A stretch of 64,000 bases of DNA, taken from IMG/VR virus record IMGVR_UViG_3300029566_000004. One strand, 5' to 3'. Made by a program: the position numbers and the translations under genes. Positions 1 through 25,736 of the stretch are shown here, one piece after another. The stretch's first letter is position 1, and each line of letters begins with the position of its first letter. Source of the DNA: a virus. The notes below the pieces were generated by a model, which had not been told where the DNA came from, ran no database searches, and saw only the letters and a program-made list of their open reading frames with translations.

Positions 1-3000
1 TTAGAATTATCTACACACCAAACAGATAGAACACGTTTATCAGAATTGTTTACATTTTGTGATAGTTTAATTTTTAATATAGATATTAAATGTAATTTAA
101 GGTCATCTTACCCATATGTTTACAAAGGAGCTTATAAAATTGAATTAGTACGTATTTTAAATGACACTGAATTAGTATTAGGAACGCTCGATATGAATGC
201 ACTGGTGGGTGATCCATATGGATATTATTCTTATTTACCACAATCTATTGTTATTAATTTAGATGCATTGCGTGAAGAGAAAAATGATTTATTCCCAGAA
301 TCTGCTATCTTGCAATTAAAAACATCATTAGTAACACCTTTTGAATATCGCACAGAAACAGGAGAGACATTGTTAATTCCAAGTGCTGTTTCTGCATATA
401 CACCTACATTAACTTATTAGATACCAGAATTAGTGGGTTTAAAACAATTTTTAACTACTGAAAAAATAACTATTTTACCTCCTTTGGTAGAATTTAAAAA
501 TTGTTCACTAGAAATTGGATTTAATACTACACATAAAAATCATACGTTTAATTTATATTAGCCTTTATAGAGTTCTGAAATGGTTGTCCCAATTTGGGTT
601 AATTATGATGAAGATACGAATACAAATATTGATTTTACTGATAGAAACAAACGCACATCATTATCATTAGAAGAATTTCGTTCTTCAGAAGAAAATCAAT
701 GGTTAATAGATGATGAATTAGCTACATGGCTAAATGCTATGATGAATAATACAAATAAGACCAATCCAGAAGCTATGTATGATGAAATAAAATATTCTAA
801 AATTGTTAATTATTTAAAACGTTGTAATATTAATCGTGCAACTGCTTTGTAGGAGTTTGGATTAGAAATTGCTCATTTGGCTCCTGAACAGAAAACAGAA
901 TTAATGCAAATGGTTAATACAAAAGAATTTTTAAGTGCTTATTCAGATATGCTTGATTTAAGCGCATTAATTGAAACAGATTGGCAAGAATTAATTGCCG
1001 CAACTAAAAAGGCAAATTAGTTGTTGTTGCGTCAGTATTTACCTAATGCGCAGGATAACTTACTTGTAGTTGATAATTCAGTTTCACTACTAGATAGTGA
1101 TTGTGAATTATTAGTTACTCCTACTGATTTTACAGATACTTATGCAACATTAAAAATTGCTTTAAAACGACGTGGGCCATTATATAATGGTAGTAATTAT
1201 TTACATTTAGTATTAGCGTTTAAAGAAAATATTGGTATTCAAATACCTGATGTAAATAATGAAAGAAAATGGAAGTATGCCATTGCTGATGGAACAACAT
1301 TTATGGAATTACCTACATCTCCTGACGATTCAGTTCCAAGAAATTCTACTTTAGTCAGTTGGATTAGTTCTTCAATATCTGATGATGACTATTATAAAGT
1401 AGCTATTGATATTTGGAATGGAGAACAAAGTTTTAATTTAGCTTCTAATATTATAACTTTATAGATTCCAATTGATGCAGCTTTTGTACAAGGACTAATT
1501 CCTCTTAAAATTGAAAGTGACGTAAATTCATCTATAAATACGCAAATATTTACCAATGATAATTTTGCTTCATTATTTACAACAGTTAAACAAAACATGC
1601 CAATGCATACTTGTTTGTTTTATCTTTATAAAGAATAGATTTCTACATCAAATACTCGAGATTATTATTCATTACCAGTTGGCAATGAACTTAAAGGATT
1701 TTTTGCCTCAGACTTATGGTGGTCAACAGAATCAGCTCAATTAAATGATTTATTAGTTTATGTATCTCGAGAATCATCGACATCTGCAAATGATTGGGAA
1801 TTTAGGCAGGGAGATTCTTTCAATGGTTTATATTTAAATAAATCAGCAGAAAATGCAGCTTATGGTATATTATTTCCTATTTAGTTTACAAATATTGAAG
1901 ATGATGAACCACTTCCTAACGTTTCTGAGGAAATCATTAATCAGAATCATAAAATTCAAGTCAGTTTTAATATTGAAGGCATAAAATCGGGTGATTAGTT
2001 AGAAGTTATTGTAAAACGTTGTACTAATGGTATAGAAACAATTCCAATTTATCAAATTTTTTAGCAAAATCGTTCGGTTAATTTTACTTTAGACGCAAAT
2101 CAACCAAGTAATGATTTTTATGTATTTAAATTTTTATACAAATAGGCAAATCTAAACTCACAGCCTGTATCTTGTTGTCTTTCTAATTTTCAATGTTCAC
2201 AAAAACATTGGGTAATTACGTCAGGATCAACGGATTTAGTAACTGGTGCATGGCAAGACGTTTTAGCATTTAATGTAATAAATCAATATAATATTAGTAA
2301 TGAACCAAAAGTTAATGGCTATACGTTTGCTCATAGTTATGTGGCTAAAACATTAGAGTTAAGTTATAAATCTAATATTGTTTTAACTACTGTATTAACT
2401 GATTTCTAGTGGCCTGATAATTTACAAGATTGGAGTGATATTTTAGAAGATAAATTAATTAATTTTCATAAGTATGATGTTCGAAAAGCTTTTAATCAAT
2501 TAAACGAAAAATTCGCTGAGTTATTTACTGATTTAAATATGTCTGTTTTACTTAATAATCATACTTGGCGCACCTAGTTTAAAATTTACTTATTAAATTG
2601 GTTGGGAATTTTAGATACAAGCTCTATTCCTATATCAAACGATCCAACCATTTTTGATATTTGGCAAGAAACTGCGATGCCCTTAAATGATATACTAAAT
2701 TTATAGTTAAAATACTTTACAGCAATTTACAATTATTTTCTTAATCTTTTAAATATTTGGTATTCAAATCAAAATATACAAGAATTAATTCCTTATTATG
2801 TAAGTGCTGATAATTTATTACTATTTAAAAATGAAATAGATTTATTGCAAATTCAATATGATCATTTAATTCTTATGATGAATGAATTAAATGAAAAAGT
2901 ACAAGCTTTATTTCCAAAATATATAGATTCTGCAGTTGAGACTATTGTTTCATTGTGGAAATTACCAACTGGAACTAATATTGGTCCGAACGATTTTGAG

Positions 3001-8039: not shown

Positions 8040-11000
8040 ATGTTATATGATGCAAATTTTTTACAAAAACTAGATACACATCACGAACATACATATTACG
8101 TCCGAATACAAGCATTAACCTTTGATGAACGTCCACTAGAGCAGTTAGAAGGACGTATTACTTCTGGATCAATTAATCTTGATGGCAAGAGCGCAATTCG
8201 GCGCTCTTGCTCATTAAGCTTTATTGCTGAAGCAACTGAGATTAATGATTATTATTGGACATTTAAATAGAAATTTAAAGTTGAAATTGGTTTAGAAAAT
8301 AAAGTTGATGATTCATACCCATCTCGAATTTATTTTAATATGGGAACTTTTTTTATTACTAGTTTCAGTTCAACTTTTACTACTAATTCTGCCTCAATTA
8401 GTATCCAAGGAAAAGATAAAATGTGTTTATTGAATGGAGAATTGGGCGGCATTATTAATGCTGAAACAGATTTTGGTACTTATGACTATACTGATGCAAA
8501 TGGTGTTACAACGAATTATAAATTAACTATTCAAGAAATTGTTACAGATTTAATTTATAGTTATGCTCAAGAGCCATTATCTAATATCATTATATAGGAT
8601 TTAGATGATGTTGGTTTAGAATAGTTAGATTATAAGAACGACGATCCAATGTTTTTAATTCGCTCTTTTACAAGTGAGCGTTATGTGCTACCTTTGTTTA
8701 GTAGCGCTGATGTGACAGTTTATTGCTGTAAGGAAATCGGAAAAGACCAATATAAGTTTTCAGTATAGAAATTGAATAATGATAAAGTAATTATTTATGA
8801 TAGCCTAACTCGACCACTATTAGATAATAATTACATTGCTACACGATTTACATTTGAAGAAATGGATGAAACATAGACATATACGGCTGAATAGTTAAAT
8901 CAAATGCAATTATATTGCGCAGCTAAAATTACTTATGGTGAAGCAGTTGGCTACCGGGTTTGTCCATTGGTCTATGCGGGAGATTTAATTGCTAAAGCTG
9001 GCGATACAATTACTTCTGTGTTAGATAAAATTATAAAAATGTTAGGTGAATTTGAATATTTTTATGATGTTGATGGACGTTTTGTATTACGTCATAAAAA
9101 ATCATTTATCAATACTGTTTGGTTGCCAGAAATGGTAACAATTAGTTCGGATGAGGGAAGAGATCGTTATTGGCTAGATTATCAATATGCAACACCATAC
9201 ATATATGAATTTAAAGATACTAAATTAATTACTAATGTACAAAATTCTCCATAGTTAGCTTCAATTAAAAATGATTATACGGTTTGGGGGGAGCGCGTTT
9301 CTGCGGCCGGTGGTAAAGTACCTATTCATAGTAGATATGCTATTGACACTAAGCCAATTATATATGTCAGTGTTGCTCCTGATGCCGAACCAAATGTCTG
9401 GACTACTTTATCAGAAGCTGAATTTAAACACTATCAACTTAATATGCCATGGCTTAAGTAGCGTTTATTGTCGCGCATCTAGCTACATGCGTCATTAGAT
9501 TGGCGTGAATTAATTTATCAAATGGCTAAGGAATATCGTCAATACAATCATAACCATAACAATTTAGAATTTGAAGACTATCAAATTACGCTGGCAAAAC
9601 GCAATGAACCTTATTATCCAAATGGTCATACTGGCTATGAGCAATATTATATTGATTTAGAAGGTTTTTGGCGTCAATTATATTGGCCTTATGATAATAC
9701 TGATGAAGATGTTTTAAATGAAATGAGCGTTTATAATAAAGTAGTAGATTATAGTGAAATAAATAGTTCTAATTTATCTTAGTATTATATTAATGGTGTA
9801 TACCGTCCTAATAGTGCTGGATTAAAAATCTATTCTGAATAGGGAACAACTGAATTAGAATTAAAAACTACAGAGCATCCATGTAAGTTATATGGCACAA
9901 CTGATAAATGGGTTATTTTAGATAGTACTCATTGGTATTATGTTGATGAAAATGGTAAAGGATTTAATATTCCTACTGAATTAGGAATCAGTGAAATTCC
10001 GCAAATTGGACAATTTACTACTAAATTAATGCATGGTTGGTATACGTATGATACTATTCGTAATTTTTTAGAAAAAAGTCCAAGTGCAGATACATTTGTA
10101 AAATTTATTTATACTACGGCATATGACATTTCAAGTTAGTTGTGGTATAAATATTCTGATATTTCGCAATCTTTTATACCTTATTTGGACCAATATGACT
10201 ATTGTCCTATTTTAGCCACAGAAAATTATCCTATTGAAGGAATGACTATTAAAGAATATTATGAAAGAACATTTGTGGATGGAGAAGCGATATATAATGC
10301 AATTTCTGAAAGCTATAAAGGTTCAAAATATATGTTATATATTTTAAATGATGTAGATACAAATATAAAAAATATTCTACAGTAGAAAGATATGTGGTTG
10401 TCATTAATATCATTAATTCTTGAACGCAATCAATTACTATATTCCTCTTGGAGTAATTGGCAGAAATGGCTCAATGACAATGATTTTATTGAATTATTAA
10501 CATCAATTACCAATAATGTTTTATAGCAAGACTCAATAGAGCGTCGTTGGTGGCAAAATGAAATAATGACTACAGCTGATGCTATAATAGCTTTGCGTAT
10601 TGCTTTAGAGATGGAAGCATCTTCTCCTGAGTTATTATTGAAATATGATTGGAATCATGATGGATAGATTACTCTTACAGATGCTTTATTGATTATGCGT
10701 TCAGTATATAATCTTGATATGATTAACATTTCTTTGCCCAGTAGTATTTCATTAATAGATTTAAAAAACTTTATACAAAATGTAACAAATAATTATGGTG
10801 AAATAGTAGATAATTTAAGTGATGAGTTAATTGCGCAATATGATTTAGATGATGATGGATAGATTAATGAAGTTGAAATTTTTCTATGGACTTATATTTA
10901 TAATTCTTTGGTGTTAGCTGATAACTCAGAATTATCAAAATTAAACCCATTGGCACATTTTATTGTATCAAACATAATAGCTTGTCCTAGTGCAATTTAT

Positions 11001-12083
11001 GATTATTTTGTAAATTCTACTAGCACTAAGGATTAGCCCTTAATTTATGATGATTTAATTGGTTTAACTGTACAAATTAACAACACAGAGCTAATATCGG
11101 AATTATTTCAATTATTAAATTTTAATTCACTTTATCAATTGTAGTGGCTTTTAAATATGTACTATGATTTTATATATGATAATTTCTCTGTTTTGAAAGA
11201 TGCGCATATGTTATCATATCAATTATTTATAAATCAATTAGCTGCAAAAACTGATTTATACTATAATGCCAATAGTAATGAAAGTAAAAAAATGTAGTTT
11301 AATAAATTTATTACTTTATTTAATTCACATTACATTTATGATAATTTAAATTATTATAATTTACAGCATATAAAAATACATCCAATTTTATCAACATTTT
11401 ATCATTTAAATGAGCAGCCTATTGAACAATTAGCGATTATTCCATATGATATTCATGGTAATCCCACTTATTTAACACGTCACTATGAGAAAATAAATTA
11501 TTATACTCGTGATTTATTATATTATGGGGCGAGTGATGGTATACGAGCATATTGGAATAAAGCAGTTTATGAAGCTCCTTATACATTAAATTTCTGGTTT
11601 GATTTTTTAGATACAGATGGTAGTATTTCGGCATATGCTACATCCGAAATAGGAGACAGGCCAATAGTGGTTAATGATACTAATTTAAAATCCATTTTTT
11701 ATAGAGAAATTCCAAAAATTTTAATTTATACTTTTGATCAATTCCAAGATGAAAAAATAGAATTAAAATCTGGTTATGGCTATATTTTATTGCCAGCTGG
11801 TTATGAACAATATTTTTCTATTTCTTCACGAGGATTAAGTATTAAAAATAAAATTGATGATTTACTTTATCAACATACCTATTGCAATTAGACAATAAAT
11901 TTAACTTGTATACCTATTTATTATTTAGATGTAAATAGTCGTATTTATATTGGTGATAAAAGATTAGGGATTGATGATGATTTCGCCATTTAGAGCATTA
12001 GTTATTCATTAAATTATAATGGCACGATGTCTTTAAGTGCAGCAAAAATTTAGCCTAATTCAATATTTGAGAGAGAGGAGTAA
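8040..12083 (+). CDS. Tail-associated/baseplate protein with two dockerin/EF-hand-like Ca-binding repeats (1347 codons), TAG read as sense
   Basis: ATG 8040 follows AAAAGGAGG. The frame links track fragments 8040..8270, 8340..8597, 8904..9254, 9522..9782, 10140..10385 and 11667..11891 and ends at TAA 12081-12083. 22 in-frame TAG, no TAA/TGA. Loops DWNHDG(TAG)ITLTD and DLDDDG(TAG)INEVE lie near 10645-10900. Confidence 0.75.
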
Positions 12084-12531: not shown

Positions 12532-15500
12532 ATGAGTAATATTATTACAACGGATAGTTTATATAATAATCAATTTACATAGAATTCTACATATAAAGAA
12601 TTACTAATCTTTAGAAGCAGATGGGATGCAGATAACCAACCCCGTAGTGGCACGGGCGCACTTGTTAATAATGAAGAAAAATTATTTTGGATAAAAACAA
12701 TTAAAGATTACCCATATGTAGAAATCAGTCATGGCAAACCAAATATGGAATGGGCTGATGGTACTGCTACGCCACTTGTTAATTCTAATAACATTTGTGT
12801 ATCATCCTCTGTGGCTAATAATCCGGTTGCTACAAACGCAACTGCATTGGAATGGGGATCGCAAATCCTTATTGCTAAGCCAATTGTTGCAGATACAGGT
12901 CATGTGATTGGTACAAAAAGTACAGGCATTAATATTCCAAAAGTTAATGCAATTGAAAAATTAGAAATGCGCAGTCATACTGCTAATAATTAGATAGAGT
13001 ATACTTTTGCGCATAAAACTATTAACAATCCGCCTAATTCCTCACCAATTGCAAATGCAACGGTTATTCAAGAAAGTCAAAATAATACTAGACCTAAATC
13101 TAAAATAAAATTTGGGAAAACTTATGATATATCACAAGATCAATTTGATCAATGGGGTCATTATCTATCTCAATCTACTTAGACAATAGATATGCCAAAC
13201 ATTAATGCAACGTCTCCAATAAGTGTTACTTTAAACAATGGTGACGCTTAGATATCTCATAGTCTGGCAACAATTGTTGAAACTACGCCACAATTTTCAA
13301 CTTATACTAATTCTACGAACACGAGGGTCAAACTGCCAGAATTGACATTAGAAAATAATTATAATTTAGAAGGCCCTCATACAGATGCATATGGACATGC
13401 TAATGCATAGGCGCAATTTGGTTTTGCTTTACGACATCACTTACCTTTAACCAGGAAGGCTACAGCGCATACTTATTTAAGTGATACTACTGGTAAAACT
13501 ACAGCAATAGCTAGACCAAAGCGTGACGGAGACGCAAGCAGAACTGCTCCAGAAAACCCAATTTCATCGCCTATTGATAAAATTAAAATGGCAGCAGTTA
13601 TTTATGCAGGAGATAATGATGGCAATCGTCAGTCTTGCGTATATTTAAATGATTCTACAGATACAATAATCAATATTTATTTTTTAAATAAATCATTAGC
13701 TACTAATGCTGGATTGCGCAATGCGTATTTAACTTTTACATTTCCAACAAATATTACAGTTACAGAAACTATTATGAATCAATCTTACATAGCTTCTACT
13801 GATACGCAATATCATTATTAGTTACTTAATAATCCAGATATAAATAATCCAATTAATATTTTAAAATTATCAGTGCGTTCAACAGGGATGATAAATAAGT
13901 CAGCGATTAATATATAGGTTACACCAGCTATTATTGAAGCGATTGATATCCCATGCACAACGGCTACTAATCTAGATGATAATGACCCTGATTCGAATAC
14001 CATTATAACTTGGCAAGAAGATGCAATTTTACAAACGCCAGTAATGCAATTTAATGAACAAGGTCATATTAATGATATTTTAACCAAAGGCATTGCTTTC
14101 CCACATTATACTACTCCTTATGGACGAGAAACTACATTTAGTAAGGCAATTGACTATTTAAATCGTTATTTATCACCTAATCCTCGTAATAGTGTAATTG
14201 ATTAGTATTTAACTGGCGCGTCGCCAATAATTGAAATTCCTACAAGCGATTCTCCTGGGTCTGGTGATTAGTAGATTTATAGTTCATATATTGAAGTAGT
14301 TTTATAGGCTTGTTTATTAAATAACGGAAATGGTTTAGTAACTGGCAAGTCTCTATCTTTCGCTGGCTTACAATTTTCTTTATATCAATATGATGAAACT
14401 GCAAATAAATGGCAGCCTTATGTTTGGCGCAAATCTATTTCGACAAATCAAGCTGAATTAGAGATTGGTAATAATAACAATACTTCTAATACTGGATACA
14501 TTTATTTAACTGATACTAAACAACGAATTGCTTTTGTTTTATCATAGCCTTATATAACAATAAATAATGAAATTTAGAAATATATATTAACAGGTAATAA
14601 TGTTGAATTACTATGGGATACATCAACTTATGGTTATGTTATTAATTTACCTGCGGTTAAAGATATTTCTCAAATTAATCCATATTAGTTAATTCAAATT
14701 TCATTAACTAAAGACGAAAGCTATTCTCCAAGCCCATCGCCAGATGTGCATAATGTTGAATTTAGAATTTGTGCAGCAATGAGAACTGGACTTAATACCC
14801 CACAAGGATGTAAGTTTTCTTTATATAAATCTATACAAGGAACAACTTTATACGATCGAATTGGTGCTCCTTATCAAATTAATGATATTTATATTGATGA
14901 AGCAAATTTATTAACAGATGTTAATCATTATGAATTTTATACTTCATAGATATAGACTATTGATTCCAATAGTCTTAATACTATATATGTAGGTTTGGAT
15001 ACTACAACAAATCAAACAATAAGTTTTAATTATGTAACTTGTCAATTGGCAGAAGAAATAGCTATAGGGAATAATGTTATTGCGTTTAAAAAGTTTACTC
15101 GTGGTATTAAGCCATCTATGGATCAATATGTGCTATTTGTCGTGGTAGACGAACAAGGTTATCCGCCAGTCAGACCAATTAATCCTACAGCCAGTGAATC
15201 TGAACAATCTTCTAAAAATGCAGGAATGGAAAATCGTATATCAGCTTTAGAGCAAGCCACATTACAATTAACTAATATTAGTGATTTAAAAAGTGTAAAC
15301 AATTTAATTTCACGTGTTGCTAATTTAGAAGATGAAATTAATCCTATTGAATATGACGCTGCAGTTGGGCAAATGATAGCAAAAAATCGTTTTGAGAAAA
15401 TTGATGCATAGACCAAATATTTAAATAAAAATAATTATCCAATAGATTTAGCTGATGCGTTTTCAAAATTATTAATGTGTTATACTGGATTAGTGAAAGA

Positions 15501-15645
15501 ATTAGCTGGTAAATTCTATAGCGATAATTAGAATCAATTTATAGCGACATTTGCATTGCCTCTTCTTAAAGAGAATGATAATTAGTCATATTTACCTAGC
15601 GATGATATACCTTCGTTAGATTCTAATACAGGAGGCGGTAAATAA
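12532..15645 (+). CDS. Tail fibre/spike-like structural protein (1037 codons), TAG read as sense
   Basis: ATG 12532 follows AAAGGAG. The frame joins track fragments 12745..12993, 13588..13821, 14746..14949 and 14995..15411 and ends at TAA 15643-15645 (TAATG overlap with the next gene). 19 in-frame TAG, including a tandem TAG-TAG at 14269-14274. Coiled-coil-like segment near the C terminus. Confidence 0.7.
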
Positions 15646-16133
15646 TGAATCTGAATTCAATTTTAGGCAATTTTGTTAAATTTGTACGTGGCACTCCAAC
15701 TGCATATAATAATCTTCAACAAAAAAATCCTGATACATTGTATTTTATTACTGAAGACAATGCTTCTTCGGGTAAATTATATTTGGGAAATAAATTAATA
15801 GGTGGCTCTATCACAGGAGCCACCTCTCTTTCTGAATTAGTTGATGTCTTCTTAGATAATAATTTATCGGTTAATCATATTTTAGTCTATGAAGGTAATC
15901 ATTGGGTTAATAAAGATATTCGAGATATTTTTGAGATATCTATTGGTACAATGCAAGGCGCAACTAAAGATACTGATGGTAAAATAGGTTTAGTACCTGC
16001 GCCGCAGGCCAATCAATAGGACACTTATCTTCGAGGAAATGGAACATGGGATAATCCTATAGCTACATACTCTGAACAAATTAATACTATGATTCAAGAA
16101 AAATTACAATGGTCTACCATTGAAGAAAATTAA
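15645..16133 (+). CDS. Tail fibre protein (short), one in-frame TAG
   Basis: ATG 15645 follows GGAGG. Track ORF 15645..16019 stops at TAG and continues to TAA 16131-16133. N-terminal VKFVRGT..YNNL..NPDTLYF fibre motif and YLRGNGTWDNP after the TAG. Confidence 0.65.
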
Positions 16134-16159: not shown

Positions 16160-17692
16160 ATGGCGACAAAATTAAATACTGCTGTAACGTTTGTACATGG
16201 TACACAAACTACATTAAATACTAAAGGTATTACCAGTGGTCAAATTTATTTTACTACTGATACTAATCGTTTGTATTGGGCAGATCCCAGCGATAGTGGA
16301 ACATTAAAATGGATTGATGGCGTGAGACGCACCAATGCATTGCCTAGCGCTCCGGGTTCATATAATCCAAGTGGTTCAATTTTAGTTGTTACACAATCTG
16401 ATGATAATGGTGCATATGATGGAGTCTATATTGCCGATGATACTAGTTGGATAAAATTAGATGCAACTACATTAAATAGTAGTATTACTACCGATAATAA
16501 TACCGCGCATATTTCTCTAACTCCTCAAGGAAAATATACTAAGGGGACAATGTTTGATATTAAAGGAGACGGCAATGTAACAATTAGCTCTGATTCAAGC
16601 ACAATTACTATTTCTGTTCCGACTCCAACTAATACGCATTTAGTTGCTAATGACCATGCTTTATCCGCGACTATAACTAATGGCGATTTATCCATTAATA
16701 TGTCTGCCTCTGATAGCGAAAATAATACAGTCAATGGTAAGATAATTATTAATGGCGGTTCAAATATTCATATTGACCAGAATGAGCTTGGCAATATCGA
16801 ACTTTCTGCAACTAATACTTAGCTTGCAGCTACCACCACCGCAGTTAATTTAACACCAGCATCTTCAACGAATGGTGTTAAAATTGTTACAACTATTTCT
16901 GATACTGCTTCTAATGCGGCTACTGGTAATTTTGAGCTTGTTGGCGCTGATGGTATTGCGATTTCCCATAATAATAATGTTATTACTTTAACAGGTGGTG
17001 CGGCAGGAGTTATTGGAAATATTAAAGATTATGTAAATTAGGCATTAGCTGATGCTCTTGGTGACTTAGACGCTATGAAGTTTAAAGGCGCAATTAGCGT
17101 AGCTGATTTTAATAATTTAAATCCTAGTACATTTGAAAGTGGTTGGGCTTATAAATTTATTACTTCTGGCACAGTAACAGGCGCTTCTGCGGATGTTGAT
17201 ATTGGTGATATGGTTATCATGTCACAAGATGCAAGGAATAATTGGATTTATAATATTATTCCTTCTGGTGATGACACTGATGTTTATTATACACCTTCTA
17301 ATGATGCTACAAATCATCAGGTTAAATTCACTGATAATACTGGCACTTTAACAGTAGCACATAAAATTATTGGTGCTAATGGTATTACTACAACTGCTTC
17401 AGTAAATGGCAAAACTTTAACTGAGACAATTAAACATGTAACAATTACACCAACCAGTACAAAAGCTACAGTTGCTAATAATTTCGTATCTACAATGACT
17501 TTTGATGACTACGGTCATCCGAGTACAGTTACATATGCACCTGCTCATGTTGCTGTAACACCTACTGCGAGCTCTTCAACTGTTAATACATTTATTAATG
17601 GTTTAACATTTGATACTTATGGTCATGTTACCGCATACACAAACGCTACTGTTGATATCGATACAAATATGTATTGGCATACACTTAGCTAA
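16160..17692 (+). CDS. Tail fibre protein (510 aa), two in-frame TAG
   Basis: ATG 16160 follows AAGAAAGGA. Track ORFs 16160..16822 and 17075..17692 share a frame and are bridged by TAG at 16820 and 17039. N-terminal VTFVHGTQTTL..GQIYFTTDT motif. Repeated TFDxYGH segments. Confidence 0.7.
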
Positions 17693-17716
17693 TTTTAAAG
17701 AAGGGAGTTGATAATA

Positions 17717-17962
17717 GTGCCAACTTCTATTATTCCAACAACGATACCTATTAAATTTATTACAACTTCAGCAGCTAATTTAAATGATATTAATATAGTG
17801 GCTGGCCAAATTATTTATACTACTGAAGGCAATATTTATTATGATCAATCAAATTTATCGCGTGTACGCATGACTATTGAACCTACTTTTACAGTTGAAA
17901 ATAATTCAACAACATTAATAATTGGAATGCCTACACATACTCCTCCAGTAGTTACCAAATAA
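17717..17962 (+). CDS. Small fibre-associated protein (81 aa)
   Basis: GTG 17717 lies 9 nt after AAGGGAG (the track starts at TTG 17708). The IKFITTSAANL..GQIIYTTEGNIYY motif is paralogous to the two fibre N termini upstream. Ends at TAA 17960. Confidence 0.55.
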   Translation: MPTSIIPTTIPIKFITTSAANLNDINIVAGQIIYTTEGNIYYDQSNLSRVRMTIEPTFTVENNSTTLIIGMPTHTPPVVTK

Positions 17963-17970
17963 ATAAAAAA

Positions 17971-17998
17971 AGGGACGTAGATAAAAATCTACGTCCCT
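17971..17998. terminator. Bidirectional rho-independent terminator between convergent late operons
   Basis: 12-bp perfect stem AGGGACGTAGAT / ATCTACGTCCCT with loop AAAA, flanked by an A-run upstream and TTATTTTATTT downstream. Confidence 0.8.
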
Positions 17999-18010
17999 TA
18001 TTTTATTTAC

Positions 18011-18406
18011 TTATTTATTCTCACGTACTTTAGCTTCAATTAAAACTTTAATATAGCTTTCTAAGTCGCCATATACTTCGTTTAAATATGTTTTAGCTTC
18101 GTCAGTCAAATTATTAAGTACTGCTGTATACGCCATGGTAAAAGCTTCTTTCTATGCTTCTGCTGTAAAGGCATTTTTACCCTTGAGCGCATCAACATAT
18201 GTCTAGTTTACAGCAATAACTGCATTGGTTACCGTGTCGGTAAGCATTGCAATATATTTCTTTGATAGCTCATTATCAGCATTTGCTGCAAGTGTTGCTG
18301 ATTTAGTTCTAATCCATTGAATTATAAATGGGACTAAAACACCTAACAAAGGAATAATACACATTTCAAAAATCTTACCCAAAAGTTCAACTATTTCTGT
18401 TGGCAT
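18011..18406 (-). CDS. Membrane protein, holin-like by position (131 aa), two in-frame TAG
   Basis: ATG 18406 follows GAGGTG. Hydrophobic N terminus (IFEMCIIPLLGVLVPFIIQWI). Track ORF 18203..18415 stops at TAG 18203; a second TAG is at 18152. True stop is TAA 18011-18013. Confidence 0.55.
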
Positions 18407-18421
18407 ATATATCACCTCAAC

Positions 18422-18913
18422 TTATTTTAAATTTGCTCGATACTTAACTTCTACTAAATTATAAAGATCGTCGCCATCATGATTTCCGTGTAATGCATTA
18501 TAAATTCGATGCTCGTTTGTAATGTGTTCAAATTCTTTTAGTGTAATTTCATGATCATTCTCTAATAAAGCACGACATTCTTCTTTAAATTGACGTCCTT
18601 GAATAGATAATATACCTTCTGTTAAAGTTGTTAAATTATTTTGATTATTTATAATCTAAGCATGAATTGCTTTATTTTCAGCGGCAACTTTATTTTCATC
18701 CTCTTGGATTATTTTTAGTATAGAACGCTAATAATCATCTAAAATTGTCTTTATATTTTCAGCAATTTCTTTATTCATTTGCTCTTGACGGTCTTCAGTC
18801 CTTTTTTTACGTTGTTTATACATAAGTGTTACACCAGTGACAATACCACTTGCAATTAAACCAAATACGAACTCAAGCCAATATTTGATGATAAATTCCC
18901 AGATAGCATTCAC
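18422..18913 (-). CDS. Membrane-anchored protein with long helical C-terminal part (lysis-module candidate), two in-frame TAG
   Basis: GTG 18913 lies 9 nt after AGGAGG. N-terminal transmembrane helix (WLEFVFGLIASGIVTGVTLM). TAG at 18728 and 18656. Ends at TAA 18422-18424. Confidence 0.55.
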
Positions 18914-18929
18914 TTAGATAATCCTCCTT

Positions 18930-18958
18930 TCTATATAATGATATTTTTTATCTGTCAA
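18930..18958 (-). promoter_or_regulatory. Sigma70-like promoter candidate upstream of the membrane-protein genes
   Basis: Minus-strand TTGACA (18953-18958), 17-nt spacer, TATAGA (18930-18935), directly upstream of the SD of the 18913 gene. Confidence 0.4.
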
Positions 18959-19007
18959 TTATTATGAAAATTATTTTAATAAAATAAAAGAATGTTGGCC
19001 TTGAAGG

Positions 19008-19481
19008 TTAAGACCAATCAAAGCCAACATTGTTCTTTACATATGCAGCACCTATACAGATAGCGTCACTTTCATCTTCAGATACTTTTTTATTATAGTG
19101 ATTTAAGACATATTGCTATGCGTTTTTTTTCTATATTCCACGCTCTTTTCCTTTAATGCCAAGTACTGAACGCCAATGCGCGCAAGTATAAATTATATAA
19201 TTTTTACCGAATAGTTCAACAGCTAATTCTTCTAATACTCCAAGAACTTTGCCTAAAATTTTATAAGTTTGTGGATCTTGCTATAACTATATATCTTCTA
19301 ATATCATAAATTCTATTTGATACTATTGGCATAACTATTGTACTGACTATCGTAAAATCTAAAGACGCGTACCCAAATGCTCATTAGTCAATTTAATAGT
19401 ACCACTTGCAATTAATTTATCTCCATCAAAAATACTATATCCTGTTACATGACTTGCCTAATCGAGTGCAAGGATTCTCAA
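19008..19481 (-). CDS. RuvC-like Holliday junction resolvase (157 aa) with nine in-frame TAG
   Basis: N terminus (M)RILALD(TAG)ASHVTGYSIFDG. Central ILEDI(TAG)L(TAG)QDPQTYKILGKVLGVL. C-terminal DESDAICIGAAY. Putative TTG start overlaps the dUTPase TGA (TTGA). Ends at TAA 19008-19010. Absent from the ORF track because TAG fragments it. Confidence 0.7.
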
Positions 19482-20020
19482 TGACTAGACCCAAAGCCCC
19501 CGATACGCTCCTTCTCGGCAACGTCATCTTCGGTCTTTATATATTTTTTAATTATTCCTTGCCCAATATAATCACCCTTTTGGATGATAATAGGAATTGG
19601 CGAGAAATTAATTAATTGGAAAAAAATTTCCCCCTCATTATCAGGATTGTTATAATAGTCAGCATCCACAATGCCGACTGCATTAGCCATTACAAGCCAA
19701 TGTTTATGAGGGAGAGAGCTACGAGCCATGATTTCAAGATATTCATCATCAGCTAACTTCACTTTCATTCCAGTAGACACTAATACAGGACGAGCATCTG
19801 CGGATTTTGTTAAGGTAGCCATTTGTGCCATGGTTAATTCAGGAGCGGCGATAGGGTTGCGATCCCATTCATGTTTCATGTCATATACCAAGCGTTCATA
19901 TGGAGGGATAATTTTCTCTTCTGCTGCTTGAAAATCATAACCGGCCGAACATTTAGTTGCCCGCGCGGGTAAAATCAAATTAGCATTATCAAAACGACTT
20001 ACAACTTCAAATTTTGCCAT
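19478..20020 (-). CDS. dut: dUTP pyrophosphatase (trimeric dUTPase)
   Basis: MAKFEVV start at 20020 after AGGAGAG (the track start 20146 is an upstream extension). Motifs SAGYDF, VGIVDADY and C-terminal GGFGSS. TGA stop. No TAG. Confidence 0.85.
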   Translation of the reverse strand: MAKFEVVSRFDNANLILPARATKCSAGYDFQAAEEKIIPPYERLVYDMKHEWDRNPIAAPELTMAQMATLTKSADARPVLVSTGMKVKLADDEYLEIMARSSLPHKHWLVMANAVGIVDADYYNNPDNEGEIFFQLINFSPIPIIIQKGDYIGQGIIKKYIKTEDDVAEKERIGGFGSSH

Positions 20021-20039
20021 AATATACTCTCCTAAATTA

Positions 20040-20297
20040 TCAAAAGTTGGGTTCATTACCATAAGAATAAGAAATAGTTGTAATACCATCAGGTTCTTTT
20101 TCATCATTGAATAAACGATTAAGTGTAACACGATACCAAGTATCAATTATTTCTCCTTTAGCTTTGCGTTCACGATATTCACAATTGTACTTAATAAGGT
20201 CACCTTTTCCATCTGCTTTTGCGGCCTCTATTAATTGTTTGGCAGCGTCTTCGTTAGGAACTCGATATATTTCTTGCGTTTTTAATAAATAATTCAT
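20040..20297 (-). CDS. Hypothetical protein (85 aa)
   Basis: Intact track ORF in operon context; RBS-like AAGGAG upstream. Confidence 0.5.
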   Translation of the reverse strand: MNYLLKTQEIYRVPNEDAAKQLIEAAKADGKGDLIKYNCEYRERKAKGEIIDTWYRVTLNRLFNDEKEPDGITTISYSYGNEPNF

Positions 20298-20306
20298 ATT
20301 AACTCC

Positions 20307-20570
20307 TTAAATAATTTCAATGTGCAGAGGAGGATGCCCTGCATAATATTCTTTACTGATGGCGAGTGCGTCACCAGCAATTTTGCTTGCTAACTCTCGA
20401 GGAGCAGCAACTACGATTGTATCACAATGATAAGTATAATAGAAAGCACAAAGTATTGTGCCGAGATCATATATCTTACTATATGCGATTAATGTTGGAT
20501 GCTCATTATTATCAACTAAATAAATAGCCTACATATTAGAACCAATTTGTACTTCAGTTGTTATTTTCAT
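20307..20570 (-). CDS. Hypothetical protein (87 aa) with one in-frame TAG
   Basis: ATG 20570 overlaps the upstream TAA (TAATG). TAG at codon 14 (20529-20531). Ends at TAA 20307-20309. Without read-through, 270 nt would be non-coding in a packed operon. Confidence 0.5.
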
Positions 20571-21094
20571 TATGCCACCCCATTTATAATACCTTGTTTG
20601 TAATCAAAGAAAACATAGCAATAAGTACCTTCATCATTTGTAATCCAGATTTCAGCCGTCCAAGTATCTTCATTTACAGTAATATCTTTAATTTCACCTA
20701 GATTTTCAATAACTTCCATAAAGATATCACTTAATTCTTCATTACTATAATCATCATGATGGAAAATAGTAATGTAACGACGTTCCCAGCATATAAGAGC
20801 CCAATAATTTTGTTCAGGCATACCCGGATCCATAGTTGCGCCAAACATACGATAAATATCTGTCTGTGCCTTGCGCAACTGTTCATCTGTCATTGGTTTT
20901 AATTGTGCAAAAATACTAGAATTTAAATCTGCTAAAGTAATTGTGAACTCACCGCCATCCAATTTTACTGGTTCCCAACTACCATTTTTACATTGATACA
21001 TTTTCTTATCTTCTTCCACAAGCGCATATTCATTTTCCATGTTCTCACGATATGGAAGAGCATCTAATATTTTTTTTGTTTTAATATTTAACAT
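20570..21094 (-). CDS. Hypothetical protein (174 aa)
   Basis: Intact track ORF; AAGGGAG upstream of the ATG. Confidence 0.55.
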   Translation of the reverse strand: MLNIKTKKILDALPYRENMENEYALVEEDKKMYQCKNGSWEPVKLDGGEFTITLADLNSSIFAQLKPMTDEQLRKAQTDIYRMFGATMDPGMPEQNYWALICWERRYITIFHHDDYSNEELSDIFMEVIENLGEIKDITVNEDTWTAEIWITNDEGTYCYVFFDYKQGIINGVA

Positions 21095-21122
21095 ATATTT
21101 ACTCCCTTACTATTCTATATAT

Positions 21123-21131
21123 ATTATACCA
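21123..21131 (-). promoter_or_regulatory. Extended -10 promoter element (TGgTATAAT) followed by ATATATAGAA
   Basis: Minus strand reads TGGTATAATATATATAGAATAG. Same -10 and downstream motif as the other early promoters; the -35 is weak. Confidence 0.35.
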
Positions 21132-21142
21132 TAAAATATTTT

Positions 21143-21604
21143 TCATTTCTACTCGTCATATACTTTAGCAGTGTTAATTAATATACGTTTTAATTGTGGA
21201 TCCATACTAAATCTATTAGCATTTTTTTCAATACTTTTTAATAGGTTACCATCTAACTGACGCTCGGAAGCAGCCTTCCAGTCGCAAAACATTTCAACAA
21301 TATCAATTAAATTCATATCATCAATACTATTATCAAAATGCTCTGGATGATGCCTATATTGAGCATAATGGTGTTGAAGCGCACCATTCATTTTTTCTAA
21401 GCATTCGCGATACTCCGGACTATCATAAGTTAATTCGGAAAGCTTAGGCGTATATTCTGTAAAGACTTCAAGCTCAGGGTTTTCGAGTTTAGCTCTATCA
21501 TGTTCAAGTCCACGAGCATATAGCTTATTAATAAATAGCTATATATACTCGCGCACTTTTTCAATATGTTTATAGGTTTCAACTTTACATTCAGCTTGTG
21601 TCAT
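21143..21604 (-). CDS. Conserved phage protein with HHY..YRHHPEHF / DWKAA motifs (DUF5662-like, tentative); two in-frame TAG
   Basis: ATG 21604. TAG at 21539-21541. Track ORF 21149..21391 ends at TAG 21149 and continues two codons to TGA 21143-21145. Confidence 0.5.
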
Positions 21605-21605
21605 A

Positions 21606-22816
21606 TTAACCACACTTACTATATCCACAGTCAATACATGTTACACAACCCATTTCATGTTTTAGATCTGCACCGCATTGAGGACATTTTTCTTCTAATA
21701 GAGTTTGAGTCTTTACTTTATGTTCATTATTAAATTTTTCCCACATTTCCATTAACGCATTTCCGATGGCGACAGGGCAGCATGAACCCGGAGATACGTC
21801 ATTCTTTGTAGCGCGGCGCACCGCATAACTAGGACAGGTTCCACTGCTCTTAAGCTGATCAACAATTTCTTCAATAGGAGTACCATTGCGCGCAGCCAGA
21901 CTAATCATACGCGAAAGTCCAATCATAAAGTTGTTGCATCCACCGGTACTTCCTTTGCTTAAATAAGTATTACGCAAATTGCCATCTTTATCAAAGAAAG
22001 CAGTTATATGTAGTGAACCACATCCAGTAGTTAAATGATGTTCCATACCTAAGCAATCAGAAGTGCCTTTCTTCGAAACTATCTTTTTAATCTTAGGTTC
22101 TTCGACCGCAGTTTCAGATTTCTTTTCTCCTGAAGTAGCGTTAAGAATAGCCGTGCGCGCACATCCAGCACGAAAGACTGTAATACCCTTTAAGCCATGC
22201 GACCATGCATTCATATAAATGTCGCGTACGTCATCAACCGTTGCTTCATTGGGAAGATTAACCGTTGATGAAATACTTGCATCTATGTGTGCCTGCCAGG
22301 TGCTTTGCATCTTGATACGATTAATGGGTTCAAGTTCAGCAGAAGTAATAAACCATTCAGGTAAGTCCGCATCATCTTTAATGCCATGGGCATCCATGTA
22401 TTCTTTAACTATTGGAGTATATACTTTGTAGGTTACGTCCTTACCATGTAAAGACTTCGTAGTACGAGTATAATAATTAGCAAAAATGGGTTCAATGCCT
22501 CCTGAAATGCCCAGCATGGTGGACAACGTGCCTGTAGGCGCAATGGTTAATAATTGACTATTATATAGACCAGCGCTTTTAAATCCGTTAATTGCTAATC
22601 CATTTGGATTGTAGTGTCGCTGAATAAAAGATGAATTTATTACTTCGGGAATATATTTAGGATATGGCGTGCCATGTTCAGCTGCCAATTTGCTGCTTGT
22701 TGCAATAGCGGTACGCGCCAATAAAGTACCAATTTCATCACTAATTGTAAGGGCTGCTTTGGAACCATAAGTAATTTGCATTTTAATCAATGCATCAGCA
22801 AGACCCATGATACCTA
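21606..22816 (-). CDS. nrdJ: Class II (B12-dependent) ribonucleotide reductase, exon 3
   Basis: Starts (L)GIMGLADALIKMQITYGS, completing the IGLG.MGLAD motif begun in exon 2. C-terminal CPQCG..CVTCIDCG zinc ribbon. TAA stop. Confidence 0.8.
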
Positions 22817-23752
22817 CATTAAATCTAATTATTTCTAATTAGAATGGACTATCTCTTCAATATTTATTATTGTTTTGCACTTCGAATAGTAACTCATCTT
22901 CTATTCTACTGGGCTACACTCATCACCCATAGTCTCTACACCTTTTTTAAATATATTTCCATTTATAACCAAAAGCTTTTTTGCTATCTTTGCATCTTTT
23001 ACAAATATCTGAACTAGGAGTTTGACTAACTGTTAAATGCTATTTTATACACCAATCACCAGCTTCTTTTAAACTGTTGAAAATTTTAATTATTTTATAA
23101 TCGTCTGTACACATAGCTACTTTTTTACTATTTTTTTCCCTTATTTTATTTTTAGTTTCTTCTGTGTGGTGATGATTATAAAAAGGATTTTTTTCTCCTG
23201 TTCTTAATGATGCAATTTTTGATATTTTTTCTTTTGTTTTTTCATTATGCCTATGACCATAAAAAGGATTATTTTCTCCATAAAGTTTTTCTCCCCCATC
23301 GGTCATATTATATCCATTTGGCATTTTTGAATTAAAATATTTTATATAATACTATTCTAATTCTAATAATTTTTCTTTATCATCTTCATATACAACAACT
23401 TCATATTTAAAATTTTCCCAACCATATTTTTTAATTGCTCGCCCTAATAAAGTATTATGATTTATATCATCATTTTTATGTCGGCGCATTCTTTCTTTTA
23501 AAGTAGCTGTAGTATATCCGATGTACAGTTTATTATTTATTATATTGGTTATTTTATAGATACATCCCATATTATCACTTCCTTTGAAATATAGGAAATA
23601 TATTTAAAACTTGGCACGGTATTATCATATCCTTTTTATAGGACTTAGACTCCCTTACCCATAATATAATTACTTATTTCTGGACCGTTAGCCGAATAAT
23701 CGACACCCCTGAGTAATAGGGTTCACAAAATTTTAATTGACCTAGATTTTTA
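22817..23752 (-). mobile_element. Group I intron 2 in nrdJ (936 nt) carrying a GIY-YIG homing endonuclease gene
   Basis: Exon 2 ends ..ATT GGC T (U) and the intron ends ..AATG (omega-G). R-like element GTAGAGACTA (+ strand 22931-22943) and S-like element AGATAGTCCA (22845-22855). Splicing restores the frame and the RNR motif. Confidence 0.7.
22857..23570 (-). CDS. GIY-YIG homing endonuclease (I-TevI/Seg-like, NUMOD3 repeats), TAG read as sense; 3' end uncertain
   Basis: GCIYKITN..LYIGYT, then NPFYGHRHNEKTKEKIS and NPFYNHHHTEETKNKI repeats. Track ORFs 23352..23570 and 23040..23324 share a frame and are joined by TAG 23352. TAG also at 23040 and 22914. The canonical ending AFGYKWKYI* sits in another frame after an A5 run near 22977. 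Confidence 0.6.
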
Positions 23753-24305
23753 AGCCAATTTGACGCCAATCGCGCACACTATCTCTTTGCTCTTGCAGAG
23801 GATGACGATACAGTCCCTCATCTAAAACATCGTTAAGTGCACGCACTGCAACATCAACTGCCCGTTCAAATTCTTTCCATTGAAATTCTCCATTTACAAC
23901 AAACGCAGCCAAATTTAATGAACCAAGTAAACAACTGCCGCCAGCGGGCAGTGGCTCTTCGGCGCAGGGATTAGTTCCAGCATATTCAAAATCCGGATGA
24001 GTATTTAGCATATTTTCTTGTTCAATTCTATCCCAAAACAAAATACCTGGCTCTGCATAATTCCAATTTTGTTCACAAAGCAAATTAAATAAATCTTTTG
24101 CTTTTACGGTTTTACTAATTACTTCACCTGTTTCAGGTCGAGTAAAACTTAATTCCCAATCGTTATCATGTTGTACAGCGGTCATAAAGTCATCAGTTAC
24201 GCGTACAGAAATGTTAGCATAATTAACTTTATTTAAGTCACTTTTGATTGTGATAAACTTTTCAATATCGGGATGGTCGCATCGCATGGAAATCATTAAA
24301 GCCCC
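23753..24305 (-). CDS. nrdJ: Class II ribonucleotide reductase, exon 2
   Basis: GALMISMRCDHPDIEKFI continues the ..QNGRR of exon 1. Contains NPCAEEPLPAGGSCLLGSLNL. Confidence 0.8.
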
Positions 24306-25286
24306 CATAGTGGACTATATCTTATTTATTATATAATAATAAACTCGGGCGCTAATACGGTCTTATTGTTTCCTCAACCGTTAGTCTCTACACCTTCTAC
24401 TGCTTTTTCTTCAGTAGCTTGGCTCGGGGTTGTTGGGCCTTCCCCGAATTCACCCAATTCAAGACGCAGGGCTTGTGCTTTATCGTATTTTCTTTTTAGA
24501 ATAATAAAACTATCGTTTGGATAAATAAAATTTAAAAACTTTAATACATCTTCTCTATTGGCGAATTCTAATACGAAACAATTTTCATTAGACTTTGGTC
24601 TAATAATTGTTGAAATTGCGCATTGTTTTAATAAAATTTGTTGGATTCCTTCAAGTATTTTTAACGAAGAAGTAAAAGAGATTTTTTGCCATAATCTATT
24701 TCGGTCTTTTCTTCTACCCCATGTTAAACATCCGTCTCCATCAAAAAATCCTTGTACCAAATATTTTTCTAAATTTTTAGGAATAATGGGACAATGTTTA
24801 TTTTCTTTTGAAGAACAATGCTTATTAAAATCAGTAATTAAATCTAAATTACCAATAGTAATTCTAGCGCGAGGAAAACGTTTGGTTTTTGGAATATAGG
24901 TTAAATCTTCTGTATAATTTGCTCCAATGTATTCTGCAATAAATTGTAATATCTTTTTATCTTCTAAACAACACCCAAATTCAACTACATTATCATTGAT
25001 GTATCCATCTGCTAAAGCATAGCCAATAATATAAGCTTTTTCTGGAGTATCAATTTTATTAAACATTTTTGGGTTTTTATATTTAGGTTTTTTATATTTA
25101 GACTTGTCATTTAACCCATATTTAGTAATCCAATATTCAATAGTTGATTTTGCTTTTCCAACAATCTTTGCAATTTCTTGTTGTGTTAATCCTTTTTCTA
25201 AATATTTTTCTAATAGTTTTCTATTCACAGAAAGAGCCTCCTACTCTATATATTTTCGGAAACTTACAATTTAATTAAGCAAGTTT
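24306..25286 (-). mobile_element. Group I intron 1 in nrdJ (981 nt) carrying a LAGLIDADG homing endonuclease gene
   Basis: Exon 1 ends ..AGA CGT (U) and the intron ends ..ATG (G). R-like GTAGAGACTAA (24382-24394) and S-like GATATAGTCCA (24311-24321). Confidence 0.7.
24374..25228 (-). CDS. LAGLIDADG homing endonuclease with N-terminal HTH (284 aa)
   Basis: Two LAGLIDADG motifs (YIIGYALADGYI, LVQGFFDGDGCL). GTG 25228 follows AGGAGG. No in-frame TAG. Confidence 0.8.
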   Translation of the reverse strand: MNRKLLEKYLEKGLTQQEIAKIVGKAKSTIEYWITKYGLNDKSKYKKPKYKNPKMFNKIDTPEKAYIIGYALADGYINDNVVEFGCCLEDKKILQFIAEYIGANYTEDLTYIPKTKRFPRARITIGNLDLITDFNKHCSSKENKHCPIIPKNLEKYLVQGFFDGDGCLTWGRRKDRNRLWQKISFTSSLKILEGIQQILLKQCAISTIIRPKSNENCFVLEFANREDVLKFLNFIYPNDSFIILKRKYDKAQALRLELGEFGEGPTTPSQATEEKAVEGVETNG

Positions 25287-25736
25287 ACGTCTGCCATTTT
25301 GTCCAATTTGTTCGGTCACTTGTGAGAAAGTGTCCATGAAAGAAACAGCGCCACTTGTTGTTTTGGCTTGATTATGAACTCTTGCACCTGCTGGAGCCAA
25401 TTTACTAATATCAATGCCGCATCCTCCACCATATGAATAAGTACGTGCCAACTTTTTACAAGTTTCATAAATACTTTCAATGGAGTCCTCTGGAGGACTA
25501 ATAACATAACAATTACTATATGTTACTCGCTCTATCTGCTCACTTACATTTCGGTTAGAAAGAATACGACCACCAAATAAAAATTTCTTATCAATAATTA
25601 ATTGTTTTACTTCTTCATGACCATTACTAATACGGTCTAACCATTGGTCAAAACTTTCATCACCACGACGATATTTTTTCTCCCATATATCAATACCGAG
25701 AGTATTATTTTCGCCTAACCAATCTTGTATTGTCAT
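25287..25736 (-). CDS. nrdJ: Class II ribonucleotide reductase, exon 1
   Basis: MTIQDWLG..FGGRILSNRN..YGGGCGIDISKL..QIGQNGRR. The three exons total 737 codons in one frame. Confidence 0.8.

Follow-up and report, generated by a model that had tools for sequence, protein, structure and literature searches.

Nine in-frame amber codons in a phage RuvC-type resolvase gene that overlaps a TAG-free dUTPase gene

The 64,000-nucleotide stretch of viral DNA held as IMG/VR record IMGVR_UViG_3300029566_000004 (the whole of which is called the window below) contains, on its minus strand, a gene for a RuvC-type Holliday-junction resolvase (19008..19481; 157 codons, TTG start, TAA stop at 19010..19008) that carries nine in-frame TAG codons, and the start of this gene overlaps the end of a dUTPase gene, dut (19478..20020, minus strand; ATG start, 180 codons including 5 Gln codons, TGA stop), that carries none. 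We hold with moderate confidence that this arrangement represents an amber-gated resolvase: RuvC would be co-transcribed with dut and translationally coupled to it, and its production would be delayed and attenuated by the nine TAG codons. The same degree of confidence extends to this explanation taken as a whole, in which the source of the window is an uncultured gut-type phage of ~130 kb that shows Firmicutes-type features and decodes TAG as Gln by means of an amber-suppressor tRNA of its own.

The nine TAGs of the RuvC gene stand at codons 8, 41, 45, 49, 53, 65, 67, 117 and 122 (window positions 19460-19458, 19361-19359, 19349-19347, 19337-19335, 19325-19323, 19289-19287, 19283-19281, 19133-19131 and 19118-19116), and a scan of the 157 codons found no TAA or TGA in this frame before the TAA stop. 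Their density, 5.7% of codons, is the highest among the ~60 genes of the window, as the original prediction had counted. Its description of the junction, with a dut gene free of TAG and ended by TGA and a RuvC TTG overlapping that stop, was likewise found in the sequence: in the TTGA at 19478..19481 (minus strand), the RuvC TTG (19481..19479) and the dut TGA share TG. Gln-type codons account for 15 of the 157 RuvC residues, and nine of these 15 (60%) are TAG. The neighboring gene is identified as a dUTPase by Pfam PF00692 (2.1e-12; 47.4 bits against a cut-off of 22) and by PHROG 135 (9.6e-33).

When TAG is translated as Gln, the RuvC product matches Pfam PF02075 with 40 bits against a cut-off of 22.2 (E 4.6e-10), residues 3-143 being aligned to profile positions 1-144 of 148. 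It also matches PHROG 827 (1.7e-19) and PHROG 159, 'Holliday junction resolvase', and a PDB sequence search returned 6lw3 and 1hjr, both at ~6e-5; 572 homologs were found, the majority of which contain PF02075. An AlphaFold model of an 84%-identical ortholog (P0001), which stands in for the window protein, has a pLDDT of 93.4 and gives Foldseek TM values of 0.81 to 6lw3, 0.74 to 1hjr, 0.80 to 4ld0 and 0.76 to 4ktw, the RuvC of phage bIL67. Residues D7, E62, D136 and D139 are invariant in alignments of 24-30 homologs and equal the catalytic D7, E66, D138 and D141 of the E. coli protein; D7, E62 and D139 were aligned with the corresponding residues of 6lw3 and 1hjr in the PDB sequence search, and D136, whose column was not scored as matched there, fits by its D-x-x-D spacing. 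Judged by Pfam, the PDB sequence search and the fold, the gene is real and its predicted product is a full-length RuvC-type resolvase, with junction cleavage as the predicted activity, which bears out the RuvC homology expected of the read-through product. No alternative start or frame that escapes the TAGs was found; the Pfam match spans almost the entire read-through product, and the relatives start (with ATG, GTG or TTG) at the same position.

Read with the standard code, this gene has nine breaks, and one public pipeline called it as a mere 99-amino-acid fragment (P0002), which illustrates that genomes of such phages need genetic code 15 for their annotation. The fragmentary call might also suggest a decaying pseudogene, or occasional TAG readthrough with an irrelevant product, but we give this reading practically no credence and regard it as effectively excluded, because only TAG interrupts the frame, the TAGs fall on invariant Gln columns, no catalytic residue is lost, relatives down to ~40% identity keep the gene together with its length and its richness in TAG, and the large structural genes use TAG in the same way.

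Several observations give the meaning of TAG in this phage. Five of the nine RuvC TAGs occupy the invariant Gln columns Q8, Q65, Q117 and Q122 and the near-invariant Q67, and the other four occupy variable columns in which Gln is also seen. The structural open reading frames (ORFs) of 1037-1511 amino acids on the plus strand, with 19-22 TAGs each, are open only when TAG is a sense codon; all of the ~60 genes of the window end with TAA or TGA and none with TAG; and the holin gene, the DUF5662 gene and a GIY-YIG gene are further TAG-containing genes supported by homology. From these sequence features, we read TAG as Gln (genetic code 15) in this phage.

No tRNA was detected by ARAGORN in the 64-kb window, and a search of the first 82 loci of relatives, extending to 6 kb from RuvC, found no suppressor tRNA but only unrelated tRNAs in L024 and L029. 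When contigs of near-identical relatives (IMG/VR sample 3300045988, 128-139 kb) were walked to reach the tRNA array, a tRNA(CUA) of 89 nucleotides was found there in three close relatives (L299, 17125..17213, minus strand; L300, 17133..17221; L301, 17114..17202), ~65 kb upstream of RuvC; the sequenced genes of these relatives are 88-100% identical to those of the window. This tRNA has the acceptor stem UGGGGUG/CACCCCA, the discriminator G73 and an encoded CCA. Bacterial tRNA-Gln is recognized by the identity pattern U1-A72, G2-C71, G3-C70 and G73, and the acceptor stem of the tRNA(CUA) is, by its sequence, of the tRNA-Gln type. Its Rfam tRNA score is 58.5 bits, and its variable region of 19 nucleotides is unusual, that of a normal tRNA-Gln having 4-5 nucleotides. 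The tRNA gene shares its strand with the replication genes and lies in a block without TAG, with a TTGACA hexamer ~30 nucleotides upstream. If the host itself decoded TAG as Gln, there would be no switch; nothing in favor of this was found, and we consider it very improbable and effectively excluded, because TAG makes up only 21 of the 409 Gln-type codons in the minus-strand genes upstream of RuvC (~12,900 codons in all), with none in the core enzymes, because the phage lineage has a tRNA(CUA) of its own, and because the hosts predicted in the literature for such phages are standard-code Firmicutes and Bacteroidetes.

The contact between dut and RuvC is itself conserved. Overlap or abutment of the two genes (ATGA, TTGA, GTGA, TAATG or ATGnnnTAA) is kept in most of 51 distinct relatives, whether recoded or not, and therefore points to translational coupling. 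An anti-Shine-Dalgarno duplex check found no canonically spaced Shine-Dalgarno sequence 5' of the RuvC TTG. Because the TTG is a weak start, lacks such a sequence and overlaps the dut stop, ribosomes would most likely reach RuvC by termination-reinitiation from dut. A dut-RuvC fusion made by frameshifting was considered and found unneeded, relatives having a plain ATG at the same position. On a 1,052-bp contig (L002) whose RuvC is 84% identical, the gene 5' of RuvC (3..392) is not dut; the C-terminus of this ORF, ...AYGYKWRF, resembles that of a GIY-YIG endonuclease of the window, and RuvC begins there with an ATG that overlaps the preceding ORF by ~10 nucleotides.

The two genes appear to be the last of a longer unit. 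A consensus scan predicted a sigma-A/sigma-70-type promoter with an extended -10 element at 21123..21151 on the minus strand (TAGAAA-17-TGgTATAAT; 10/12 matches with TG), and a counterpart, TTGAC(A/T)-16/17-TGnTATAAT or a near match, is present in seven relatives whose RuvC is 47-64% identical (L008, L009, L016, L018, L020, L024 and L029), with the deviations that the -10 element of L024 is TAAAAT and that L029 has no TG. Downstream follow, all on the minus strand, o174 (20570..21094), the first gene, which is TAG-free, is syntenic in relatives and has no match in Pfam or PHROG; o87 (20307..20570), a small ORF with one in-frame TAG at codon 14 that is retained in the close relatives L001 and L003-L007; o85 (20040..20297), a small TAG-free ORF syntenic in nearly all relatives; and then dut and RuvC. 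At the end of RuvC, a hairpin resembling an intrinsic terminator (18981..19031, minus strand; scan match 19017..18995) has its 5' arm in the final RuvC codons, the TAA in its loop, and the 3' arm followed by CTTTTATTTT. In an alignment with eight relatives, 8 of its 15 pairs are kept through two-sided changes, and the T-run is present in all nine sequences; by this conserved pairing and T-run, the hairpin is a predicted Rho-independent terminator. With a conserved promoter at its 5' side and a covarying terminator at its 3' side, a five-gene unit o174-o87-o85-dut-RuvC, of which RuvC is the last cistron, is therefore likely. These two signals and the conserved overlap make it very probable that RuvC is co-transcribed with the TAG-free dut, as had been supposed.

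The gene that precedes this promoter, encoding a DUF5662 protein (21143..21604, minus strand; Pfam 1.5e-35), ends with ...GAG TAG AAA TGA at 21143..21151. The TAG, which precedes the TGA by two codons, is part of the -35-like hexamer of the promoter downstream. This TAG could be a stop in early infection that is read through later, adding two residues to the protein.

A different source of timing would be transcription itself: RuvC could be expressed mostly late, from a promoter for the phage sigma factor in the 3' part of dut, in which case TAG would only mark the late class. The phage does encode an RNA polymerase sigma factor (59785..60627, minus strand; PHROG 351, 4.7e-81), which is TAG-free and which implies that there is probably a transcriptional cascade as well, and our scanner sees only sigma-70-type sites; within this range, it found no promoter-like site in 19482..19700. 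We nevertheless judge such an arrangement improbable, given that the overlap of dut and RuvC is conserved in dozens of relatives, that RuvC has no Shine-Dalgarno sequence of its own, that the conserved host-type promoter stands before the unit, and that the terminator follows directly after RuvC.

If the resolvase is instead gated by its amber codons, the events might be as follows. Transcription from the host-type promoter would yield an mRNA from which dUTPase is translated at once. Without suppressor tRNA, ribosomes reinitiating at the RuvC TTG would halt at codon 8, one residue past the catalytic Asp7, and release a heptapeptide, and full-length RuvC would require nine successive suppression events. 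The output of RuvC would be uncoupled from its mRNA and delayed until suppressor tRNA(CUA) activity accumulates, and it would probably also be kept low, because any inefficiency per TAG is multiplied across the nine sites.

The two genes downstream of RuvC probably form a separate unit. The original prediction had placed RuvC and these lysis-like genes on one early transcript; co-transcription with dut is very probable for RuvC, but the downstream pair stands behind the terminator and has a promoter-like site and a strong Shine-Dalgarno sequence of its own. Its first gene, TM2 (18422..18913, minus strand; GTG start), encodes 163 amino acids, with a single hydrophobic segment near the N-terminus and a tail that resembles a coiled coil; it has no significant family match in Pfam or PHROG, and its position next to RuvC is conserved, with synteny in 19 clusters of relatives. 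The second (18011..18405, minus strand) belongs to a holin family (PHROG 13712 'holin', 5.5e-32), and the two TAGs predicted for each of these membrane-protein genes were found. A candidate promoter (18922..18958, minus strand), read from the sequence, consists of TTGACA (18958..18953) with TATATA/TATAGA 15-17 nucleotides downstream; it was missed by the scanner because a spacer of 15 or the lack of a T at -7 is outside its rules. The Shine-Dalgarno sequence AAAGGAGGA ahead of the TM2 GTG (18913) forms an anti-Shine-Dalgarno duplex of -11.9 kcal/mol, among the strongest in the window. A bidirectional terminator hairpin of 13 bp with T-runs on both sides (17970..17999; scan match on both strands) lies between this converging minus-strand block and the plus-strand structural block.

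Within the window, TAG is distributed very unevenly. RuvC and the two genes after it have TAG at 13 of 27 Gln-type codons, against 21 of 409 in all minus-strand genes upstream (Fisher p=3e-9), and the share in RuvC itself, 9/15, compares with 1/15 in the four upstream genes of its unit. The replication and nucleotide-metabolism core, with hundreds of Gln codons, has no TAG at all (DNA polymerase, Dda-like and DnaB-like helicases, RecJ, Sak4, NAD-ligase, topoisomerase II, RNase H, RNA ligase and sigma factor). The upstream minus-strand TAGs are found almost entirely in homing-endonuclease genes, the DUF5662 gene (1-2 TAGs), o87, and a few small or singly affected genes, including a primase-like gene with one, one other gene with one, and a few small ORFs. 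The sharp codon-usage boundary that had been proposed thus holds as a contrast between two genes (dut 0, RuvC 9), but not as the border of a region or operon, given the sparse upstream TAGs and the one in o87, which belongs to the unit itself. In the giant structural ORFs, 0.4-1.8% of codons are TAG, and TAG makes up 83 of the 267 Gln codons (31%) of the structural genes, compared with 9/15 in RuvC (binomial p=0.019).

The contrast between the two genes recurs in the family. The gene order o174-o85-dut-RuvC-TM2 is found in ~80 IMG/VR loci, whose RuvC has 36-94% identity by tblastn; the non-recoded relatives have the same synteny and no TAG throughout, and the recoded members, clustered at 85% RuvC identity, gave 27 clusters with both RuvC and dut. 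Family-wide, the TAG share of Gln codons is 0.41 in RuvC (117/282), 0.13 in dut, 0.03 in o85, 0.08 in o174, 0.27 in TM2 and 0.16 in the holin gene. The share in RuvC exceeds that in dut in 24 of the 27 clusters (Wilcoxon 8e-5) and, in 20 of the 27, that in the other TAG-containing ORFs of these loci taken together (40% vs 27%; Wilcoxon 0.003), both tests treating the clusters as independent despite their shared ancestry. Of 38 distinct recoded RuvC genes, 23 have TAG at codon 8, next to the catalytic Asp7, against 9-16 at the other invariant or near-invariant Gln codons.

These figures bear on a more neutral explanation, namely tolerance, by which CAG would drift to TAG in any gene whose product can be dispensed with until the suppressor tRNA is present. 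RuvC would then be needed only for resolving branched DNA at packaging, and its TAG density would reflect a Gln-rich protein plus drift. RuvC does contain about twice as much Gln as the structural genes, its excess over them within the window reaches only p about 0.02-0.04, and lone TAGs are scattered in several unrelated small genes. The sites also turn over: the RuvC of L002 has nine TAGs as well, seven of them at sites in common with the window and two new, so that the two genes differ at four sites. Against drift stand the TAG share of RuvC, which is above that of the other TAG-containing genes in 20 of 27 clusters and above that of the neighboring lysis-type genes; the finding that the invariant Gln most often recoded is the codon adjoining the catalytic Asp; and five proteins of the head/tail module of a close relative, L148 (IMG/VR contig 3300045988_165556), which have 0/41 TAG among their Gln codons (8535..9284, 9302..10423, 10904..11458, 14885..15817 and 18424..18954), whereas their neighbors (portal, terminase, tape-measure and others) have TAG at 25-50% of Gln. 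PHROGs gave these five no names beyond 'virion structural protein' for one, and that they are abundant virion proteins is a guess from their position; if so, their lack of TAG suggests that the virion proteins of highest abundance avoid this codon, and TAG use would therefore be under selection rather than in free drift. On balance we regard tolerance as unlikely, while giving it more weight than a late promoter inside dut.

Nucleases of the RuvC type do harm when in excess, and small amounts of them suffice. A braking role of TAG for proteins that are dangerous or required in few copies fits not only RuvC but also the TAG-bearing homing endonucleases in the otherwise TAG-free block and the TAG-free putative virion proteins. 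We speculate further, as a possibility that we would not call probable, that the number and placement of amber codons form a quantitative dial for the timing and dose of DNA-cutting enzymes on host-promoter transcripts; selection would have given RuvC the highest TAG load, its first TAG, at codon 8 just past the catalytic Asp, preventing a truncated or premature nuclease, the homing endonucleases would be treated alike, and abundant virion proteins would have been purged of TAG because suppression is inefficient.

Several points weigh against an amber-gated resolvase. Co-transcription, the 'early' timing of the unit, coupling, delay and attenuation are all inferred from sequence, and a late promoter may lie within dut. 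The excess of TAG in RuvC over the other TAG-users is modest within the window alone (p about 0.02-0.04), and the family-wide tests take as independent clusters that share ancestry. In the unit of dut and RuvC, o87 also has a TAG, and the dut genes of some relatives have 1-4; the rule is therefore statistical and not strict. The suppressor tRNA is known from relatives and not from the 64-kb window, and since its gene lies in an early-type block with TTGACA just upstream, it may already be made when infection begins, and any delay would then be shorter.

Other phages offer partial parallels. In T4, early read-through transcripts of gene 49 (endonuclease VII) and e (lysozyme) reportedly hide the ribosome-binding site in a hairpin, and only the late transcripts are said to be translated. 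The outcome is alike, with early-transcribed resolvase and lysis functions left untranslated until late, but the device there is mRNA structure at the start site and here would be amber codons with a suppressor tRNA; moreover, endonuclease VII is not a RuvC and has no homology to it. The RuvC of the Lactococcus phage bIL67 (4ktw) and the bacterial proteins 6lw3, 1hjr and 4ld0 share with the window protein their fold (TM 0.74-0.81) and acidic catalytic residues, and bIL67 RuvC is likewise a phage-encoded RuvC-type resolvase in a Firmicutes phage. Identity in the fold alignments is only 13-24%, and at most 16% to bIL67 RuvC, and neither the bIL67 gene nor the bacterial genes are known to have in-frame stop codons.

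Gut phages that use code 15 and recode their structural and lysis genes, while their replication genes keep the standard code, have been described among the crAss-like, Lak, Agate and other phages (Borges et al., bioRxiv 10.1101/2021.08.26.457843; Yutin et al. PMC7886860), and Borges et al. (bioRxiv 10.1101/2021.08.26.457843) proposed that the recoding controls late and lytic genes at the level of translation, not transcription; code 15 in crAss-like phages has been proved by proteomics (Peters et al. PMC9523058). The window resembles these phages in having TAG where Gln is expected, in replication genes free of TAG, in structural and lysis genes rich in it and in its low GC content, and its close relatives resemble them in their tRNA(CUA). 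To the Agate clade there is a likeness in genome size (~128-139 kb in the relatives), Firmicutes-type signals and the recoding pattern, which is a resemblance only and not a phylogenetic placement. The original idea of translational timing for resolvase and lysis functions agrees in general with the published model, while the early status of the unit and a timing set by suppression are only inferred.

The general phenomenon of TAG-gated late and lysis genes is thus already published, and the preferential recoding of RuvC is a modest new detail. The papers stress lysis and tail genes and one intron endonuclease, whereas here RuvC is the most recoded gene and the last cistron of a predicted host-promoter unit, with its start overlapping a TAG-free gene; our search of a limited literature found no mention of a resolvase in the context of recoding. 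New are the family-wide conserved TAG preference of RuvC, the conserved overlap with a TAG-free dut, and the host-type promoter and covarying terminator that delimit the predicted unit. In the TGA-recoded Agate phages (~127 kb), the homing endonuclease of a group I intron in an early gene is preferentially recoded, which was read as withholding the nuclease until late (Borges et al., bioRxiv 10.1101/2021.08.26.457843). The window likewise has recoded endonucleases, three GIY-YIG and one LAGLIDADG, in a standard-code early region. The recoded stop of the Agate gene, however, is TGA to Trp in a selfish element, whereas RuvC serves a core function of the phage and its synteny is conserved. A core recombination nuclease hereby joins the preferentially recoded functions (lysis proteins, tail proteins and the intron endonuclease), which suggests that the theme shared by them, beyond lysis, is toxicity or a low required dose. 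The junction of dut and RuvC provides a clean natural test case for the published post-transcriptional recoding switch, with two overlapping cistrons on what seems to be one host-promoter mRNA, 0 against 9 amber codons, and this contrast conserved in many lineages.

A similar gut phage is phAss-1/'Phassvirus' (OQ749652, 135,976 bp), in which TAG is recoded to Gln, with three tRNA-Sup(CTA) and 41 recoded ORFs (Babkin et al. PMC10607447); the recoded ORFs include virion genes and 'several DNA-processing enzymes', and the recoding of holin and dUTPase varies among its relatives (PMC10607447). It is comparable to the window phage in size and in the change of TAG to Gln, and to close relatives of that phage in having suppressor tRNA, but it is distant, with RuvC 25% identical by tblastn and no nucleotide match, and no resolvase is mentioned in PMC10607447. 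Against GenBank phages, megablast of 17000..24000 gave no match, and tblastn with RuvC found only distant Enterococcus phages (~30%) and Phass-1 (25%), with no annotated close relative.

The TAG-bearing endonuclease genes upstream, all on the minus strand, are those of a GIY-YIG/NUMOD3 endonuclease (22947..23570, 2 TAGs), two GIY-YIG endonucleases (35802..36500 and 42005..43045, 3 TAGs each) and a LAGLIDADG endonuclease (52355..53296, 4 TAGs). The ribonucleotide reductase gene (21606..25736, minus strand) is divided into three or more pieces (25275..25736, 23733..24308 and 21606..22808), which are parted by free-standing endonuclease genes, one HNH-type (24374..25228, 0 TAG) and the other the GIY-YIG/NUMOD3 gene; in a 99%-similar strain (L001), a LAGLIDADG gene is present at the corresponding site. 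The DnaB-like helicase gene (36635..37711 and 35127..35639, minus strand) is split by the GIY-YIG gene at 35802..36500, and the PhoH gene (53576..54430 and 51893..52234, minus strand) by the LAGLIDADG gene; these two split genes are TAG-free and the endonuclease genes inserted in them are TAG-bearing. Rfam at gathering thresholds gave no match in the window, so that any group I introns in the split ribonucleotide reductase, helicase and PhoH genes are only putative. The 346-amino-acid protein encoded at 42005..43045 contains a coiled coil besides a hydrophobic segment at the N-terminus and a GIY-YIG domain at the C-terminus, and the adjoining ORF of 136 amino acids (41362..41772, minus strand) looks like a truncated nucleotide-metabolism gene that ends just past an in-frame TAG.

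Heavy recoding is also seen in structural regions of the relatives. A tape-measure-like ORF of 3424 codons in the close relative L119 (9008..19282) has 78 in-frame TAGs. The large terminase region of L148 (797..4663) and L151 (1051..4665) is interrupted by TAG-rich HNH-like endonuclease ORFs, in which TAG accounts for up to 9 of 17 Gln codons and the number of which varies between strains.

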